Assembly: GCA_963789955.1 (NCBI GenBank)
Contig: CAWBMV010000037.1
Location: 128,001 to 192,000, forward strand
DNA length: 64,000 nucleotides
Direction of reading: 5' to 3'
Source: an uncultured Candidatus Rokubacteria bacterium
GTDB taxonomy: Bacteria > Methylomirabilota > Methylomirabilia > Rokubacteriales > CSP1-6
Every line of letters starts with the position of its first letter. Position 1 is the stretch's first letter. This document shows positions 53,220 through 61,762 of the stretch, in pieces. A program made the translations under genes and the position numbers. The notes beneath the pieces are model-generated. The model was not told where the DNA came from, made no database searches, and saw nothing but the letters and a program-made list of their open reading frames with translations.

Positions 53220-53887
53220 GCCTTGCGTGCCTTGACGACCAGCTGGGCGCGCGTCAAGGTACGCCCGCCGTCCTCGAGGAACTTCACGTACTTGAACCAG
53301 CGGCCGTCCACCTTCCAGCGCTCCTGGAGCCCGACCGCCGCCGCGAGGCCTTCTTCGACCGACGCGAAGGCTTTGACGTCGCGCTCGACCTCGAGGTGCT
53401 CGACCGTGAAGCCGGTCCGCTTCAGGAGCCGGCGCACGCCCGTCTCGCCGTACGCGAAGCGCGAGGGCCGGCCCGTCTCCTTCCACTGATCGTTGTGCAG
53501 GGCGACGAACGCCAAGACCTGGCCGGCACGGAGCGCGCGACTGGCCCGCTCGGCGATCGCGTCGGACATGCAGAGGTACGCGACGACCGCGTCGGGCTTG
53601 AACGGTATGTACTCTTCGACCTCGATGTCGCCGACCACGAACCGGACGTTGGTGAGCTTGGCCGCGGCGGCCTTGCGGCGCGCCTCGTCGATCGCGCGCG
53701 CGTCGCGATCGACTCCGACGACGGCGCGGCAGAGCGGCGCCAGCGCCAGCGCCACCCGGCCCGAGCCGGTCCCCGCGTCCAGGACGGTCAGCTCGCGGAG
53801 CGGCTCGCTCTTGAGTCGCTCGAGGAACGCCGCGCTGAGCTCCTCGCCCGAATCGGCCGGTCGGCTTTCAGCCGGTGACGGCGCCAT
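53216..53887 (-). CDS. Class I SAM-dependent methyltransferase
   Basis: Motifs VLDAGTGSG and VVGVD. Confidence 0.75.
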
Positions 53888-55544
53888 CGGATGCACTCCC
53901 GACGAGGCGCGCGTACTTCGCCAGGGCGCCCCAGGTGTAGCGCGGCTTCGGGCGCTTGACGCTCTTGAGCCGCTTCTTGATCTCGGCGGCCGAAAGCTCC
54001 ACGTCGAGCTTGCGCTTCTTGATGTCGATCACGATCGTGTCGCCGTTGCGGAGCGCCGCGATCGGTCCGCCCTCGGCGGCTTCCGGCGCGATGTGGCCGA
54101 TCATGAATCCGTGCGTCGCGCCCGAGAAGCGCCCGTCGGTCATCAGCGCGACGGTGTCGCCCAGGCCCGCGCCCTGGAGCGCGCCGGTCACGTGCAGCAT
54201 CTCGCGCATACCCGGCCCGCCCTTGGGACCTTCCCAGCGGATGACGATGACGTCGTTCGGCTTGATCTTCCCGGCCTTCACGGCCGCGAACGAATCCTCC
54301 TCGCGCTCGAACACCCGGGCCGGACCGCGATGGAAATCGCGCTTCTGGCCCGAGATCTTGGCCACGCACCCCTCGGGCGCGAGATTGCCCCGGAGGATCG
54401 CGAGGCCGCCCTCGGGCTTGATCGGATCGGACAGCGGCCGGATGACCTTCTGGCCCGGCGCCTCGCGGCCGGCGCGCGCTTCCTCGGCGATCGTCCGGCC
54501 GGTGACCGTCGGCGCGTCGCCGTTCAGCAGGCCCGCCTCGAGCAGCCGCTGGGCCACGACCGCCATGCCCCCGGCGTCGTGCATCTCCGGCGCCGTGTAG
54601 TTGCCCCACGGCCGCATGTCGGCCAGCAGCGGCGTCTTGCGCGAGACCTTGTCGAACTCGTCGATCGTCGAGCTTGACGCCCGCCTCCTTGGCGACGGCG
54701 AGCAGGTGCAGGACCGCGTTGGTCGAGCCGCCGGTGGCCATCACGCCGGCGATCGCGTTGTGCAGCGACTTGCGCGTGATGATCTGACGCGGCAGCAGGC
54801 CCTTGCGCAGGACGTCCATCGACGAGCTTGCCGGTCTCGAACGCGACCTCTTCCTTGCGAGGGTCGGTGGCCGTGACGCCGTTGAACCCCATCGGCGACA
54901 CGCCGAGCATCTCGAACGCGGTGGACATCGTGTTGGCGGTGAACTGGCCGCCGCAGGCCCCGGCGCCCGGGCAGGCGCGGCTCTCGATCTCGTTCAGCTC
55001 CTTCGCGTCGATCTTCTTGGCGTTGAACGCGCCGATCGCCTCGAACACCTCCTGGATGGTGAGGCGCCGGCCCTTGTACTCGCCGAAGGCGATCGAGCCC
55101 CCGTAGAGCATGACGCTCGGCAGGTTGAGCCGCGCCATCGCCATCACCATCGCCGGGATGGTCTTGTCGCAGCCGGAGATGCCGACGAAGCCGTCGAGGA
55201 GATGGCCGCGCACGACCAGCTCGACGGAATCCGCGATCGCCTCACGGCTGATCAGCGAGGCCTTCATGCCCTCGGTGCCCATCGCGATGCCGTCGGTGAT
55301 GCTGATCGTGTTGAACTCGATCGGCGTGCCGCCGGCGGCGCGGATGCCTTCCTTCACCTTCTCGGCCAGCTTGCGGTGGTTCCAGTTGCACGGGGTGATC
55401 TCGATCCAGCAGTGGGCGACGCCGACCAGCGGACGCTTGCAGGTCCTCGTCGGTGAAGCCGATCGCCTTGAAGTACGAGCGGGCGGCCGCGCGGTCGGCG
55501 CCGTCCACGAGGCCACGGCTCTGGTGTCGGGGATCGAACGTCAT
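53868..55544 (-). CDS. ilvD: Dihydroxy-acid dehydratase (about 3 frameshifts)
   Basis: Motifs [25 protein letters not shown] and TDGRFSG across frames. Confidence 0.92.
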
Positions 55545-55952
55545 GCGGATGCCTCCTTCTGTCGCTTGGCGACGAGGAACGTGAACTTGCCCTGCTGCAC
55601 GACCTCGCCGTGTTGATCCAGATATCGTGCGCTCGTCGACGACCAGCCCGCCGTCGCGCAGCGGGCGCTTCGAGACGATCCGCGAGCGGCTGTGCATCGT
55701 GTCGCCCACGCGCAGCTCTTTCATGATCTTCCAGTCGAGACCGACGAAGGCCTGCACCGCCATCGGCGGCGCCTTGACCCGCCAGCCGAGCCCGATGGCC
55801 ATGCACAGCGGCAGGACGTCCGGGATCCCGCCCGAGCCCATCTCGCGCGTCAGGCCCTCGTACATCTCGACGTGGGCGGCGGTCACGGTGATGGCGGGCG
55901 TCAGCTGGACCTGGTCGACCACGACGTCCTCGAAATAGGTGGCGGCGGTCAC
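55541..55952 (-). CDS. MaoC-like hotdog-fold protein, degenerate (frameshift near 55620)
   Basis: Motifs YFED and LRVGDT; lacks the D-N--H motif. Confidence 0.6.
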
Positions 55953-56396
55953 GGACGTTTCTGCACGACCAGGTCGGTCTGGCCCTGCTGGACGACCTCG
56001 TCGCGCTGGTTGAGGATCGTGCGGTCGAGCGTGATCTGTCCGCGATCGGGCTTGTCGAGCGTCCTTCTTGTCCACGACCTTCGCCCGCAGCCTGATCGTG
56101 TCGCCGATCTTGACCGGCGCCTTGAACTTCCAGCGCAGCCCGCCGAACCCGAGCGTGGCGTACGGCGCGGTGGCGCGCGTGAAGAGCCCGGACTGGATCG
56201 CCAGGCACAGGAGGCCGTGCGCGATGCGCTCACCGAAGATCGTCTGCTTCATGAACTCGGCGTCGGTGTGCAGGACGTTGTAGTCGCCGGAGAGTCCGGC
56301 GAACATCACGATGTCGGCCTCGGTCACCGTGCGCCCGGGGGACTCGTACTCCTCGCCGAGCTCGATCTCGTCGAAGTAACGCCTCGGATCGGCCAT
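55949..56396 (-). CDS. MaoC family dehydratase (frameshift near 56065)
   Basis: Motifs RTVTEADIVMFAGLSGDYNVLHTD, IAHG and PVKIGDTI. Confidence 0.85.
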
Positions 56397-56469
56397 GGGC
56401 GCCGCCAAGAATAGCACAGGGGCGCGCGGGGTTCGGCCTCGCGCAGAAGTTTGCGAGCCTGCCCGGCGG

Positions 56470-56834
56470 ACCATGGAATTTAATTCGCGCGTGACGTGGT
56501 CTACGTCCTGCTCGGGGGCCCGCCCGGCGACGCAGATCCTGAGCGTCGCGTTCTCACCGGATCCTCGGCGGCGCGCGATCTCCTGACATCTGGTGCGTCG
56601 ACCGCTCGTCATCCCGATGTCCGGCATCGTGGGACCCTCGCCCAAGACATCGGGCGCGGCGTGGCATCCGTCGTCATCTTCGTTCTGCGTGGGTTCACGT
56701 GGGCCTCATCACGTCGAGCGGCAAGACGTTGAGGGGGGGCGATGGTACGGGGCACGTCGGGGCCGCGATGCGTGCAAGCATCATGGCCCTCTCTCCGACG
56801 CATCTCGGGCTTCACCGTGGGCGCGATCAAGTAG
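56470..56834 (+). pseudogene. Putative heavily degraded carbohydrate ABC permease remnant
   Basis: Ends ISGFTVGAIK*, a MalG-like C-terminus. Scattered fragments LVIPMSGIV and SVVIF lie in different frames. Confidence 0.35.
56803..56834 (+). repeat. 32-bp direct repeat, copy 1
   Basis: TCTCGGGCTTCACCGTGGGCGCGATCAAGTAG, identical to 58434-58465. Confidence 0.95.
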
Positions 56835-57115
56835 TGGACTAAGGCTCGGAAGAATGGACTCCGGGGCACTTGCAGCACGACATCTCGTCGTACCCTGCGG
56901 TCAGCATGGTTGCCGCGCGAGCGCGGGTAGGGCGCGCTTTACGCTCGAACAAACGCGCTCGCGGGCTTGTCGGAGTGACAATTGGTCCGTTTCAATGACC
57001 ACTTCTGTCATAACCGTGCCGTGCCAGCCGCGCGGTTTCGTCAACCGTGCGATAGGTCAGGGGTCGAGGGCGCCGACGGCACGTGGCGAAGATCTTGAAG
57101 GTCGCGAACGGCGGA

Positions 57116-57896
57116 ATGGTGTTTGCGCGCATTTGGCACATAGTCGCCCGCAAGAGGCGACGGTCGACGAGCGCCCAGATGTTCCGACAGGCGCAGACGG
57201 CTTCGGGATGAGGCACGCTACAAGCGTGCGGTCCTGGTCGTCGAGGACGCGTTGCTCCAGGATCCGAGGAGCGTCGTCGGACATCTACTGGCGGCCTCGC
57301 TCCACATGGTTCTGCGCGAGACCGGCCAGGCCAGGGCCTCGTTCGAGCGAGTCCTCGCGCTCGAGCCGACGCAACCCCGCGCTCTGCTGGGGCTCGCGCG
57401 CATCGCGCTCGAGGAAGGCGATGCCGCGGCGTGCCTTGAGCTGCTCACGCGAGCGCTGACGCGATATCCCGATTTCCCGGAGGCACGCGCCCTGCTGGAG
57501 GTCGCCCGAGGACTCGTGGCGACCGCCGACGCGAAGCGCACGGTCGCATCGAACGGAGCGATCCCTGCCGACCGGCTGCGCCTGCCGGCCGAGAGCCTCG
57601 AAGCGCTGTTCATTCGAGCCGATGCGACCGTGGTCTTCGCCGAGCCGCATGGACCGCGTACCAACGCGGTCGCCGGTAGCGCCGTGAAGCTCGCGACAGT
57701 CGCGACGGCGATGCTCGCGGGAGCCGGGCTCGGTCCGTTGCGCCACGCCGTCATCGAGGGAGTGGCCGACACGACGTATCTCCGCGCCGACGACGCGGCG
57801 CTCCTCACCGTGTCGTTCGACCGCGACCTGAAAAGCGCGACCGCAGTCGAGCACCTTAAGCGGGTATGGGACCGCTGCCGCTCGGAGCTCGTATGA
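57116..57896 (+). CDS. TPR protein with a C-terminal roadblock/LC7-like domain (probable frameshift near 57197; start uncertain)
   Basis: TPR helices (ARASFERVLALEP..ALLGLARIA..). C-terminal 'ALFIRADATVVF...GLGPLRHAVIEG..TYL..ALLTV' roadblock pattern. Confidence 0.65.
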
Positions 57897-58288
57897 GCCC
57901 CGCCGCCGTCATCGCGCGGCCCGCGCTCGGCCGCGACCTCCGCGATGTGCTCGCCGAGCTTCTGAAGCTCCAGCACATCATCGGCGGGCTCGTCGTCGCT
58001 CCGGACGGGCTCGTGATCGCCGCCGATCTTCCACGCGAGATACAGGCCGAGCCCCTTGCCGCGCTGGTGGCGACCGTCGGACGCGAGCTCGAGCGACGCG
58101 GTCCTCGGCTCCGGCGCGGAGCGTTCCCGACGGCGCAATTCGCGAGCGTGAGCGGGGCCGCCGCGTTTATCGGCAGCACTCCCGTGGGTTTCATCGTGCT
58201 GCTCGGTGGGCCGCGCGCGGACTACGATACGATTCGCGCAGCGCTGCGCGAGGCGGTCGAAGCCGTCTATCGCGCCTGGGCGGGCTAA
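57893..58288 (+). CDS. Roadblock/LC7 (MglB-like) domain protein
   Basis: IIGGLVVAPDGLVIAADLP..EPLAALVA; ATGA overlap with the upstream gene. Confidence 0.8.
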   Translation: MSPAAVIARPALGRDLRDVLAELLKLQHIIGGLVVAPDGLVIAADLPREIQAEPLAALVATVGRELERRGPRLRRGAFPTAQFASVSGAAAFIGSTPVGFIVLLGGPRADYDTIRAALREAVEAVYRAWAG

Positions 58289-58433
58289 TCCGCCCCGGCA
58301 CGAGCGGCGCGCCGCCGCCACGCGCTCGAGGAGCGTCTGGCACTGTCGCCACCCCGAACAGGGTGGGCTCCAAGTGCGCGGAAGACCTAACTAGCGGGAC
58401 TGAGCGGGACTACCGTAGAAGACCGCCGGGAAT

Positions 58434-58465
58434 TCTCGGGCTTCACCGTGGGCGCGATCAAGTAG
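58434..58465 (+). repeat. 32-bp direct repeat, copy 2 (overlaps the methionine synthase stop codon)
   Basis: Identical to 56803-56834. Confidence 0.95.
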
Positions 58466-59483
58466 CGCCGAGCTCGCGGCGGACGAGCGCCGCCCCGAGC
58501 ACGAGCGCCCGCAGCTTGCCTTGGGCGACCTTACGCGTGAGCGGGACCATCCCGCAGTTCGTGCAGGGATAGAGGCGCTCGGGCGGCACGTACGGAAGTG
58601 CCCGGCGGATGACGTCGGCCACCTGCTCGGGCGTCTCGATCGCGTTCGTCGCGACGTCGACGGCCCCGACGAGCACGTCCTTGCCGCGCAGGAGGCCGAG
58701 CAGCTCGATCGGCACGCGGGAATTGGCGCACTCGAGCGACACCTGATCCAGGCGGCTCGCCGCCAGCAGGGGGAACGTCTTCTCGTACTGGCGCCATTGC
58801 TGGCCCAGGGTCGCCTTCCAGTCGACGTTCGCCTTGATCCCATAGCCGTAGCAGATGTGCACCGCGGTCCGGCAGCCGACGCCCTCGATCGCGCGGTGCA
58901 GCGCCTCGATCCCCCATGCCTCGACGTCGTCCATGTAGACGTTGAAGGCCGGCTCATCGAGCTGGAGCACGTCGAGGCCGAGCGCGGCGAGCTCTCGCGC
59001 CTCTTCGTTGATCACGCGCGCGAACTCGAGCGCGAGCCGCCGCCGGTCGCGGTAGTACTCGTCGGCGAGCGTGTCGACGATCGTCATCGGCCCGGGGATC
59101 GTGAACTTGAGGGCGCGCGCGGTGCCGGCGCGCGCGAAGCGAACCTCGTCGCCGTGGATCGGGCCCCGGCGCCTGATGGGCGCGGTCACCGTCGGCACCT
59201 CGGCCTTGTAGCGATCGGCCCGGATCCCGATCGTGACCCGCCGCGAGAAGTCGACGCCCTCGAGCCGCTCGAGGAATCCGTGGACGAAGTGCTGGCGCGA
59301 CTGCTCGCCGTCGGTCACGATGTCGATCCCCGCCAGCTCCTGATCCTTCAGGGCCAGCAGGACCGCGTCGCGCTGGGCCTCGGCGAGCGCCTCGCCGGTG
59401 AGGCGCCACGGCGCCCAGAGGGTGGCCGGCGTGGCGAGCCACGTGGGCTTGGGCAGGCTTCCGGCGATCGTCGTGCGGAGCAT
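58458..59483 (-). CDS. Core cobalamin-independent methionine synthase, MesD-like
   Basis: Motifs GSLPKP.WLA, DGEQSRQHFV, HICYGYGIKAN.DWK and CTNCGM; 341 aa, catalytic domain only. Confidence 0.85.
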   Translation of the reverse strand: MLRTTIAGSLPKPTWLATPATLWAPWRLTGEALAEAQRDAVLLALKDQELAGIDIVTDGEQSRQHFVHGFLERLEGVDFSRRVTIGIRADRYKAEVPTVTAPIRRRGPIHGDEVRFARAGTARALKFTIPGPMTIVDTLADEYYRDRRRLALEFARVINEEARELAALGLDVLQLDEPAFNVYMDDVEAWGIEALHRAIEGVGCRTAVHICYGYGIKANVDWKATLGQQWRQYEKTFPLLAASRLDQVSLECANSRVPIELLGLLRGKDVLVGAVDVATNAIETPEQVADVIRRALPYVPPERLYPCTNCGMVPLTRKVAQGKLRALVLGAALVRRELGAT

Positions 59484-59587: not shown

Positions 59588-60684
59588 TTGCACTTTTCCG
59601 ACACGCGTCTGGCGGCCGTCTGGGACAAGGTCCGCGACGGCGGGCGCCTGAGCCGTGAGGACGGCCTCTTGCTATTCGAGACCGAGGATCTGCTGGGCCT
59701 CGGACGCATGGCCGACCACGTCAAGACCGCGCGCGAGGGCGACCGCGCCTATTTCGTCCTCAACCGGTACATCTCGCCGACCAACATCTGCGTGCTCTCG
59801 TGCGCCTTCTGCGGCTTCGCCCGAAAGAAGGGCGAAGACGGCGCGTTCGAGTACACGGTCGAGGACATCGTCGGCATGGTCAGCGAGGAGGTTCGCGAGG
59901 TCCACATCGTCGGCGGCCACCATCCGGACTGGCCGTTCGAGTACTACGAGCGGATCATCGGCGGCCTCCACGCGGCGCGTCCCTGGGTGCAGATCAAGGC
60001 CTTCACCGCCGCCGAGATCGATTACTTCTGGCGGCGCTGGAAGGTCGAGCCGGTGGAAGCGCTCACGCGGCTGAAGGCCGCCGGGTTGCAGACGATGCCG
60101 GGCGGCGGCGCCGAGATCTTCTCGTCGCGCGTGAGCAAGCTCTTGCGCTATGCGGGCAAGGCCGACGGCGACCGCTGGTGCGAGATCCACGGGATCGCCC
60201 ACTCGCTCGGGATCCGCACCAACGCCACCATGCTCTACGGCCACGTGGAGACCCACGCCGAGCGGGTCGATCACCTGATCCGCCTGCGCGAGCAGCAGGA
60301 CCGCTCCGGCGGCTTCCTCACCTTCATCGCCCTGCCCTATCAGGTCGGGACGACGACGCTCGTGCCGCGCTCGACGCCGCCGGCCGACAACTTGCGCACG
60401 ATCGCGGCCGCGCGTCTGCTGCTCGACAATTTTCCGCACATCGAGGCGTACTGGGTGCTGCTCGGCGAGGAGACGGCGTCGATCGCGCTGCACTTCGGCG
60501 CCGACGACGTGAACGGCACGCTCGAGGACGAGCGCGTGCAGCACATGGCGGGCGCCGAGACGCCGGCCGGCCTCGCGCGCGAGCAGCTCTTCCGGATCAT
60601 CCGCGATGCGGGCAAGGTGCCGGTCGAGCGCGACGCGCTGTACAACGTGATCCGCGTCTGGGATCGCGAGGGGTGGCGGCCTAG
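59588..60684 (+). CDS. mqnE: Aminofutalosine synthase (radical SAM); reads through into mqnC in this sequence
   Basis: Motifs TNICVLSCAFC, EVHIVGG, KAFTAAE, PGGGAEIF, LLLDNFPHI and PVERD. TATAAT at 59546 and a GGAGGA RBS. Confidence 0.85.
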
Positions 60685-60688
60685 CCCG

Positions 60689-61762
60689 ATGCTCGAGACT
60701 ATTCGGGACAAGGTTCTCGACGCTAAGCGGCTCGATCGCGCTGAAGGTCGCTGGCTCCTCGCCGAGGCGCCGCTGCTCGCGCTGGGCGCCCTCGCCGCCG
60801 AGGCCCGCTACGCGCGCTTCCCCGAGAAGGTCGTCACGTTCGTGATCGACTCGAATCCCAACTACACGAACGTCTGCATCACCGACTGCCAGTTCTGCGC
60901 CTTCTACCGCAAGCCGGGCGATCCCGAGGCCTACACCCTGACGGTCGAGGAGGTGCTGGCCAAGATCGAGTTCGCGGCGTCCAAGGGCGCCACGACCGTG
61001 CTGCTGCAGGGCGGTCACAACCCGGCGCTGCCCCTCGACTACTACACGACGATCGTGCGCGAGACGCGGCGCCGGTTCCCCGAGGTCACGCCGCACTTCT
61101 TCACCGCCTCGGAGATCCGCACGGTCGCGCAGGTGGAGAAGATCTCGGTCGGTGACGTCCTCGATCGCCTCTGGGAAGCCGGGCAGCGGACACTGCCGGG
61201 CGGCGGCGCCGAGGTGCTGTCAGAGCGCGTACGCCGGCGGATCGAGCCCAAGAAGGGCGGACCGGAAACCTGGCTCGAGGTGCACCGCGAGGCCCATCGC
61301 CGCGGCTTCAAGTCGACGGCGACGATGATGTACGGCCACGTCGAGGAGGTCGACGACCTCCTCGAGCACCTGGACGTGATCCGCGAGCTCCAGGACGCGT
61401 TCGGCGGCTTCACGGCCTTCGTGCCGTGGTCCTTCAAGCCCAACAACACCCTGCTCGAGAAGTGGATCAAGCATCCGAAGGGTCCGAACATGTACCTGCG
61501 CATGCTCGCGGTCTCGCGCCTCTATCTCGACAATTTCCCTCACGTCCAGGCCTCGTGGTTCTCGGAAGGCAAGCGCACCGGCCAGATCGCGCTCCACTTC
61601 GGCGCCGACGACTGGGGCGGCACCTTGCTCGAAGAGAACGTGCACAAGGCCGCGGCGTTCGTGAACACGATCGGCGTCGACGAGATCGTCACGTTGATCC
61701 GCGACGCCGGCTTCACCCCCGCCCAGCGCACGACCGAGTACGAGATCCTGAAGCGTTACTGA
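60689..61762 (+). CDS. mqnC: Cyclic dehypoxanthinyl futalosine synthase (radical SAM)
   Basis: Motifs NYTNVCITDCQFCAFY, LLQGG, TATMMYG, QASW and EENV. Confidence 0.85.
   Translation: MLETIRDKVLDAKRLDRAEGRWLLAEAPLLALGALAAEARYARFPEKVVTFVIDSNPNYTNVCITDCQFCAFYRKPGDPEAYTLTVEEVLAKIEFAASKGATTVLLQGGHNPALPLDYYTTIVRETRRRFPEVTPHFFTASEIRTVAQVEKISVGDVLDRLWEAGQRTLPGGGAEVLSERVRRRIEPKKGGPETWLEVHREAHRRGFKSTATMMYGHVEEVDDLLEHLDVIRELQDAFGGFTAFVPWSFKPNNTLLEKWIKHPKGPNMYLRMLAVSRLYLDNFPHVQASWFSEGKRTGQIALHFGADDWGGTLLEENVHKAAAFVNTIGVDEIVTLIRDAGFTPAQRTTEYEILKRY

Follow-up and report, generated by a model that had tools for sequence, protein, structure and literature searches.

The 64,000-nucleotide stretch of uncultured Candidatus Rokubacteria DNA analysed here (the window) contains a 1.6-kb cassette bounded by a direct repeat. 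GTDB records with the permease end described below next to MaoC, mqnE or mesD are labelled Rokubacterial, as is a homologue of the cassette's TPR protein. Comparison with related genomes and with soil metagenome contigs suggests that the cassette is probably the remnant of a larger island that entered the 3′ end of a sugar ABC permease gene by site-specific integration and later lost much of its DNA to deletions. The first-pass annotation had proposed a minimal non-autonomous or deleted integrative element. A deleted element is supported by the data below. A minimal element delivering a signalling module is not, as the cargo appears to be a fragment from a congener, one strain has a longer insert, and none of 158 other family genomes has a second copy.

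The two repeat copies (Table 1) are exactly the same 32-mer in direct orientation, as first reported. The sequence corresponds to the final 32 nt of the gene for ABC permease 2, whose C-terminus reads FISGFTVGAIK. The last 8 nt of copy 2 double as the end of the convergent mesD-like gene (..ELGAT*), again as described. A search of the 6.77 Mb genome for further copies returned none with up to four mismatches, and one paralogous permease end at six. Exact direct repeats of at least 32 nt, lying 100-5000 nt apart, occur at 44 loci in this genome, so a 32-nt repeat is not by itself rare here, and it is the related genomes that give this one its meaning.

Table 1. Features of the cassette and its surroundings, in window positions
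Feature	Position	Strand	Remarks
Eroded three-gene sugar ABC operon	56480..56802	+	Stretch of low quality in the assembly
Repeat copy 1	56803..56834	+	Last 32 nt of permease 2, in gene register; putative attL
Left-end stretch	56835..56871		~40 nt of unknown origin, same in five strains; putative left end of element
Single-domain response regulator remnant	56872..56900	-	DNA patches 12/13 and 11/13
Divergent intergenic region of native chemosensory locus, putative promoter	56911..57115		75% identity to G000:C15
TPR + C-terminal roadblock-fold protein, ~259 aa	57116..57896	+	Pfam TPR_19
Roadblock/LC7 protein, 131 aa	57893..58288	+	Pfam PF03259, E=9e-5, just below cut-off
Foreign tail, 132 nt	58302..58433		Native downstream DNA ends at 58301
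Tandem 9-mer, period 10	58393..58411	+	Similar to arm-type sites of integrases; 22 nt ahead of copy 2
Repeat copy 2	58434..58465	+	Displaced permease end; putative attR; bridged by X5 contig 58385-58829
Core methionine synthase, mesD-like, flanking host gene	58458..59483	-	PF01717; NCBIfam PRK09121, 557 bits (cut-off 392)

The ancestral arrangement was read from relatives. At 18 loci examined at the MaoC junction, a three-gene sugar ABC operon begins there in five (G004, G006, G013, G021 and G024), MaoC directly adjoins mesD in 11, one has a truncated binding-protein gene, and one gave no probe match. The operon encodes a binding protein and MalF-like and MalG-like permeases, the latter scoring below the MalG cut-off; it is intact in relatives and spans about 3.1 kb. 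In G006 and G013 a single permease end overlaps the mesD stop by 8 nt, exactly like copy 2, and these two relatives supply the empty site, with none seen within the same species. It follows that the repeat consists of the 32 terminal nucleotides of the permease gene and that the DNA before copy 1 is the leftover of the operon. Within it, 56500-56573 matches the end of permease 1 and 56574-56793 matches permease 2, at 70-79% identity to G004, G006 and G013. The predicted integration at a gene end, with an attL/attR-type duplication, is thus supported by the single-copy permease-mesD junction in relatives and by the recurrence of both junctions in other samples. Not mesD but the permease 3′ end is the target, since in G081 and G087 (below) this end is duplicated ahead of MaoC.

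Other arrangements around this operon were also observed. In G004 an unrelated gene directly follows the same permease end: a lipoprotein-like gene on the opposite strand (L024:6626-7044), the other end of which is unassembled. It may be a second insert at this site, and a homologue with 82% identity lies at G000:C14:26829-27237. The truncated binding-protein gene between MaoC and mesD in L026 (G014:C44) is joined to an unrelated gene fragment and is the same operon, decayed independently. The last 10-30 permease codons outlast repeated operon loss in several genera (L121, L132, L167, L144, L119, L226). A TAGAAT hexamer lies between the permease stop and mqnE, directly before the latter, in L132 and L144, and the permease gene end may double as promoter DNA.

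Duplication of the same gene end was also found in another genus. A search for the permease end gave 54 places in 48 of 159 family genomes and, at looser stringency, positives in 102 of 251 class genomes. The regions inspected comprised all 54 of these places plus 40 more, the remainder being for the most part the end of a paralogous permease. In G081 the duplication is perfect over 31 nt, with 35 nt between its copies; in G087, where the permease is eroded, two diverged copies follow it at a distance of about 70 nt from each other. A 10-nt motif precedes copy 2 in both genomes, and MaoC, not mesD, comes next; as G081 and G087 belong to one genus, they may represent a single further event. Identity between copies starts 4 nt before the GGC codon in G081 and G087 and one base further out, at 5 nt, in the window; in all three it runs up to the stop. 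The same target position seems to have been reused, and the near-identical left boundary in two genera points to site-specific integration. Single orphan copies in G059, G129, G068, G134, G097 and L226 were not accepted as attR sites, as operon deletion explains them; that in G059 remains ambiguous. Two-copy genomes G100, G108 and G151 hold paralogous permeases, and G109 reflects a contig overlap. In G137, a 7.7-kb stretch after the permease end held neither an integrase nor a second copy.

The right end of the cassette was examined for traces of an integrase. After the roadblock gene, L056 continues into the native downstream promoter region, so that the insert of this strain extends further right than that of the window, which switches to the foreign tail at 58302. 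No homologue of the tail was found in 17 genus genomes, 159 family genomes, phages or plasmids, other than short GC-rich chance matches. It opens with ERRAAATR-X-EERL, read over a one-base frame change, which resembles ERRQTASRLEAQL, the end of a G133 integrase. An integrase C-terminal profile scored the tail at p ~0.07 among 1500 random windows, which is not significant, for a family picked after the sequence had been seen, and a DNA profile from another integrase clade gave no match. On this faint likeness, the tail could possibly derive from the 3′ terminus of a tyrosine integrase gene that has been lost. Tandem repeats of 7-9 nt occur within 220 nt in 18 of 23 Rokubacterial tyrosine-integrase ends, compared with 21% of random 220-nt windows; an exact tandem 9-mer occurs in 1.8% of random 140-nt windows. 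Near the cassette core, one such arm-like 9-mer is apparent on the right and none is clear on the left, and across 251 genomes a short arm motif occurred at control level.

As first noted, no recombinase lies between the copies, with no match there in this assembly, and the cassette is thus no intact integrative element. Nor was a recombinase found at any of the sites examined: when 45 reference frames were compared with 162 overlapping loci (1.2 Mb), the sole match lay 8 kb away, beyond mqnE, and the integrase genes retrieved had no core-like sequence nearby. In this genome PF00589 has 10 matches and PF07508 has two. Its recombinases are at or near tRNA genes or XerC/D-like, none with the core nearby, so the suggested search for a recombinase acting in trans yielded no cognate. 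Viral contigs gave no match to core or tail and no relative of the G133 integrase, only two unrelated matches. A family scan with PF00589 returned mostly XerC/D-type top matches and was not used. An RNA gene was rejected as the target, there being no tRNA or tmRNA in the window and no Rfam match near threshold. Just past the window end, an intact-looking tyrosine integrase gene (G000:C37:193284-194572) lies by tRNA-Val with an NYN-like gene adjoining; this is a separate island about 7 kb from the cassette. In L403 (G133:C9:774573-777911), serine recombinase and tyrosine integrase genes converge on a tRNA-like stretch, probably as stacked islands.

These data bear on whether a site-specific integrase was involved at all. 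The duplication could instead have arisen by illegitimate or homology-assisted uptake of congener DNA, or from an insertion sequence with a long target-site duplication, followed by erosion. Such an origin would suit the lack of an integrase, a cargo of ordinary congener chromosomal DNA, the different gene in G004, which indicates a spot that collects inserts, and the single permease-end remnants that persist after operon loss (G068, G134, G097, G129, L226). It would not readily produce duplications that begin within one base of each other in two genera and finish exactly at the stop, nor an arm-like tandem repeat before copy 2, and no terminal inverted repeats or transposase of an insertion sequence or composite transposon were seen at the cassette. 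Overall we consider an integrase-free origin unlikely, and site-specific integration is retained as the preferred reading.

The two cargo genes overlap by 4 nt (57893-57896), in agreement with their description as coupled. One extra base near 57197 in the TPR gene, absent from the X3, X5 and soil contigs, most likely reflects an error of sequencing. Contig C15 of this genome holds a second copy of the pair together with its intergenic region, at 75-80% identity and without flanking repeats. There the pair is divergent from genes for a response regulator, CheW, a periplasmic binding protein, an MCP, a CheA-like kinase and two more receiver proteins, a cluster that is presumably Pil-Chp-like. 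This locus (L001:8680-18819, G000:C15) encodes three roadblock-domain proteins (TPR-roadblock, roadblock and receiver-roadblock) and a receiver-DUF4388 protein. Frameshifts in the C15 copy are most likely errors, since the pieces of this copy match intact 291-aa proteins at 97-99% identity. Among the 158 other family genomes, 74 have a single match and none has two; the roadblock gene follows the TPR-roadblock gene at all 29 family loci fetched. Relatives do, then, carry these genes stably without the duplication, which had been named as evidence against an integrative element, though at a different locus.

Phylogenetic analysis indicated that the cargo is foreign to the host lineage. The window cargo groups with G006 and G014 (support 99/96), and a clade uniting it with the C15 copy of the same genome was rejected (AU test, p=0.0002). 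The closest relative, G004, was too short for the cargo tree; its 198 available nt are 91% identical to C15 and 80% to the window. Together, the tree and the AU test suggest that the species holds a native pair plus an acquired pair. The cargo gene tree is itself discordant with that of the flanks, which leaves some room for hidden paralogy. Judged by sequence comparison, the cargo appears to be a piece of a congener's chromosomal chemosensory locus, cut within the neighbouring gene.

That neighbouring gene accounts for part of what had been taken for merely a regulatory-looking spacer. A broken response regulator gene lies inside it, and the right-hand tail is also foreign to the native locus of the cargo. 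In the soil strains the regulator remnant covers residues ~8-50 of 120, and it is shorter in the window; tblastn with the G006 regulator gene gave 77-90% identity in all four soil contigs and no match in the window itself. The gene is cut two codons ahead of the predicted phospho-acceptor Asp52, at the same point in all strains, and its 5′ deletions of 110-175 nt differ among strains. The window's left-end stretch has three single bases fewer than the soil contigs. The divergent intergenic region is conserved in congeners and gave no match to a sigma-70 consensus. GC content dips only slightly at 56800-57200 and was uninformative.

Erosion of the operon also differs among strains. Relative to G004, deletions measured 46 and 209 nt in L054, 2674 and 25 nt in L056, 2392, 24, 173 and 153 nt in L057, and ~2395, 24 and 151 nt in L058, the first two being common to L057 and L058. 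Differences between the leftover permease and that of G004 are mostly silent, indicating that the decay is recent; that young pseudogenes are rapidly deleted is established (PMC2916853). Microhomology at the deletion ends was 0-2 nt on a reference 93-95% identical, and for this reason no repair mechanism is claimed. The genome has two Ku genes (G000:C1:185761-186300 and C30:15838-16332). Going by gene content, end-joining repair could contribute to the many small deletions.

The strain-variable ends argue against a minimal non-autonomous element still mobilisable by a recombinase in trans. The cargo ends are deletion scars rather than fixed ends, and only ~40 nt of left end remain. There is one genomic copy, with none in 158 family genomes or in viral contigs, and the genome's own integrases, at tRNA genes or XerC/D-like, offer no helper. 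No excised-circle joint was found among those listed for four metagenome runs, in which contigs drop rare forms. Continued mobility would be compatible with the identity of the two copies, survival of the right-hand arm-like repeat, the number of PF00589 and PF07508 matches, and a protein cluster of 98 members, but we hold it to be quite improbable. The remnant of a worn-down island is probably immobile now.

The reliability of the assembly was assessed from independent soil samples, with four of 24 listed metagenome runs compared with the window. Five metagenome contigs contain 27 nt of the repeat. Four of them (L054, L056, L057 and L058) place copy 1 after permease codons and run on into the same left-end sequence and the TPR gene; the fifth has a more distant permease followed by mqnE. 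L056 extends as one contig from MaoC to past the roadblock gene, the X3 and X5 contigs cover both cargo genes and are near-identical, and an X5 contig crosses the right junction. The duplication is not chimeric: four independent soil contigs share the left junction and one contig bridges the right. No contig among those listed in the four runs bridges 58288-58385. As this part is unbridged and L056 continues differently, a length of 1.6 kb and the lack of an integrase are shown for this assembly alone; on the right, the deletion may be peculiar to the strain or reflect a collapsed assembly. Single bases common to the four soil contigs are missing from 56480-56935, so fine detail of the window there is unreliable. 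Frameshifts affect ilvD and the two MaoC genes, and mqnE with mqnC reads as an apparent single 724-aa frame (window 53868-56396 and 59588-61762). Most indels in these flanking genes are likely sequencing errors, as soil contigs lack several of them. In X1 and X2, joints lacking 56404-58446 carry 40 other letters at that place and were rejected as precise excision; they represent relatives that have neither operon nor cassette. An artefact of error-prone long-read assembly, whether a chimera or a collapse during polishing, to which the frameshifts, missing bases and unbridged segment might have pointed, is very improbable given these junctions: it is refuted for the duplication and left junction and bears only on exact length.

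Structure prediction gave a model of the TPR protein with pLDDT 87, for which the best Foldseek match was MglB (E=1.8e-5, C-terminal domain). The pair of roadblock domains reached a complex score of 0.81, compared with 0.10 for the best control; contacts agreed by at least 92% between runs, with partner pLDDT of at least 80. The mark used for this score is reached by 116 of 157 solved pairs and two of 215 mismatched pairs. The two cargo roadblock domains are thus predicted to bind each other, though the score may reflect mere likeness to the roadblock dimers already solved. The C-terminal fold and predicted dimer are shared with Myxococcus xanthus MglB, a roadblock/LC7 protein (PDB 6HJM), from which the cargo TPR protein differs in its 15% identity, its TPR fusion and its place at a chemosensory cluster; any GAP activity is putative.

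Selection on the cargo was also considered. Alignment gaps relative to G006 total 11-14 bases in 1.35 kb, and no large deletion was found in the cargo in the window, L056, X3 or X5, while the left-hand DNA is riddled with them. The cargo branch, which covers time in the donor too, had a dN/dS of 0.37 (95% 0.24-0.61), compared with 0.15-0.27 for five native copies. Between the window and L056, nine non-synonymous and six synonymous differences, few as they are, gave a pN/pS of ~0.57; the MaoC genes had 0.02-0.14 within the species. In the cluster of TPR-roadblock proteins, from a catalogue that shows open frames only, without genomic context, 13 of 15 listed (of 40 read) are 238-270 aa long; one member of the cluster is recorded on a 940-kb contig. 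A fair reading is that the cargo is retained under relaxed constraint.

The following sequence of events is proposed. The ancestral site was one permease end overlapping mesD, as in G006 and G013. An element, probably with a tyrosine integrase gene beside the right copy, would have recombined ~31 nt before the stop codon, bringing a replacement permease gene end. It would have carried part of another species' chemosensory locus, a transfer suggested by the cargo phylogeny. Once the ABC operon was dispensable, deletions that differ among strains removed it along with the response regulator and further DNA of the element, and the TPR-roadblock and roadblock genes, whose products are a predicted heterodimer, escaped. 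The cargo pair would likely add to the native pair in pilus/chemosensory polarity control. The integrase itself is putative, none having been found at any such site.

The kind of object is already familiar as the genetic scar of an integrated island. Islands and prophages are integrated at the 3′ ends of protein-coding genes by tyrosine integrases, an example being e14 at icd. Many attB sites are reported to lie within protein-coding genes, which the incoming island often reconstitutes (PMC12884075). The cassette resembles such islands in the duplication from crossover to stop, the empty site in relatives and the arm-like tandem repeat by one copy, and differs in that the integrase is gone, the target gene is now a pseudogene and the cargo is congener chromosomal DNA. 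This genome also has at least two integrase-free islets, at tRNA-Leu (C1:71149-72180) and tRNA-Phe (C1:523008-525992), the latter with a short integrase C-terminal remnant inside. Like the cassette, they hold 1-3 kb between duplicated gene ends, with no PF00589 match on that contig; unlike them, the cassette targets an ABC permease. For a Streptococcus pneumoniae prophage site, PPH115, a 27-nt att core is listed at a sugar ABC permease gene (PMC8637289). The tie to a sugar ABC permease is shared, while the sequence is unrelated and the phylum is different. PMC8191103 proved irrelevant. Neither this site nor a Rokubacterial island was named in the literature searched, which included few subscription papers and lay outside the TIGER/Islander tables.

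The cassette offers a clean case, in five strains of an abundant uncultured soil species, of an island remnant in the middle of erosion, with differing deletions to either side of two kept genes. It also carries a caution, as 'integrase-free mini-elements' recognised from one assembly can be end points of decay. The permease end provides a candidate protein-coding integration site for a phylum without genetic tools. More tentatively, and with the odds somewhat against it, an undescribed Rokubacterial integrase family might target the conserved 3′ end of the MalG-like permease gene and move pieces of congener chromosomes, here installing a second roadblock polarity module that was kept while its surroundings were deleted within very little sequence divergence. 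The finding further draws attention to the TPR-roadblock/roadblock pair conserved in the chemosensory cluster of Rokubacteria, of which an extra copy has apparently been kept.
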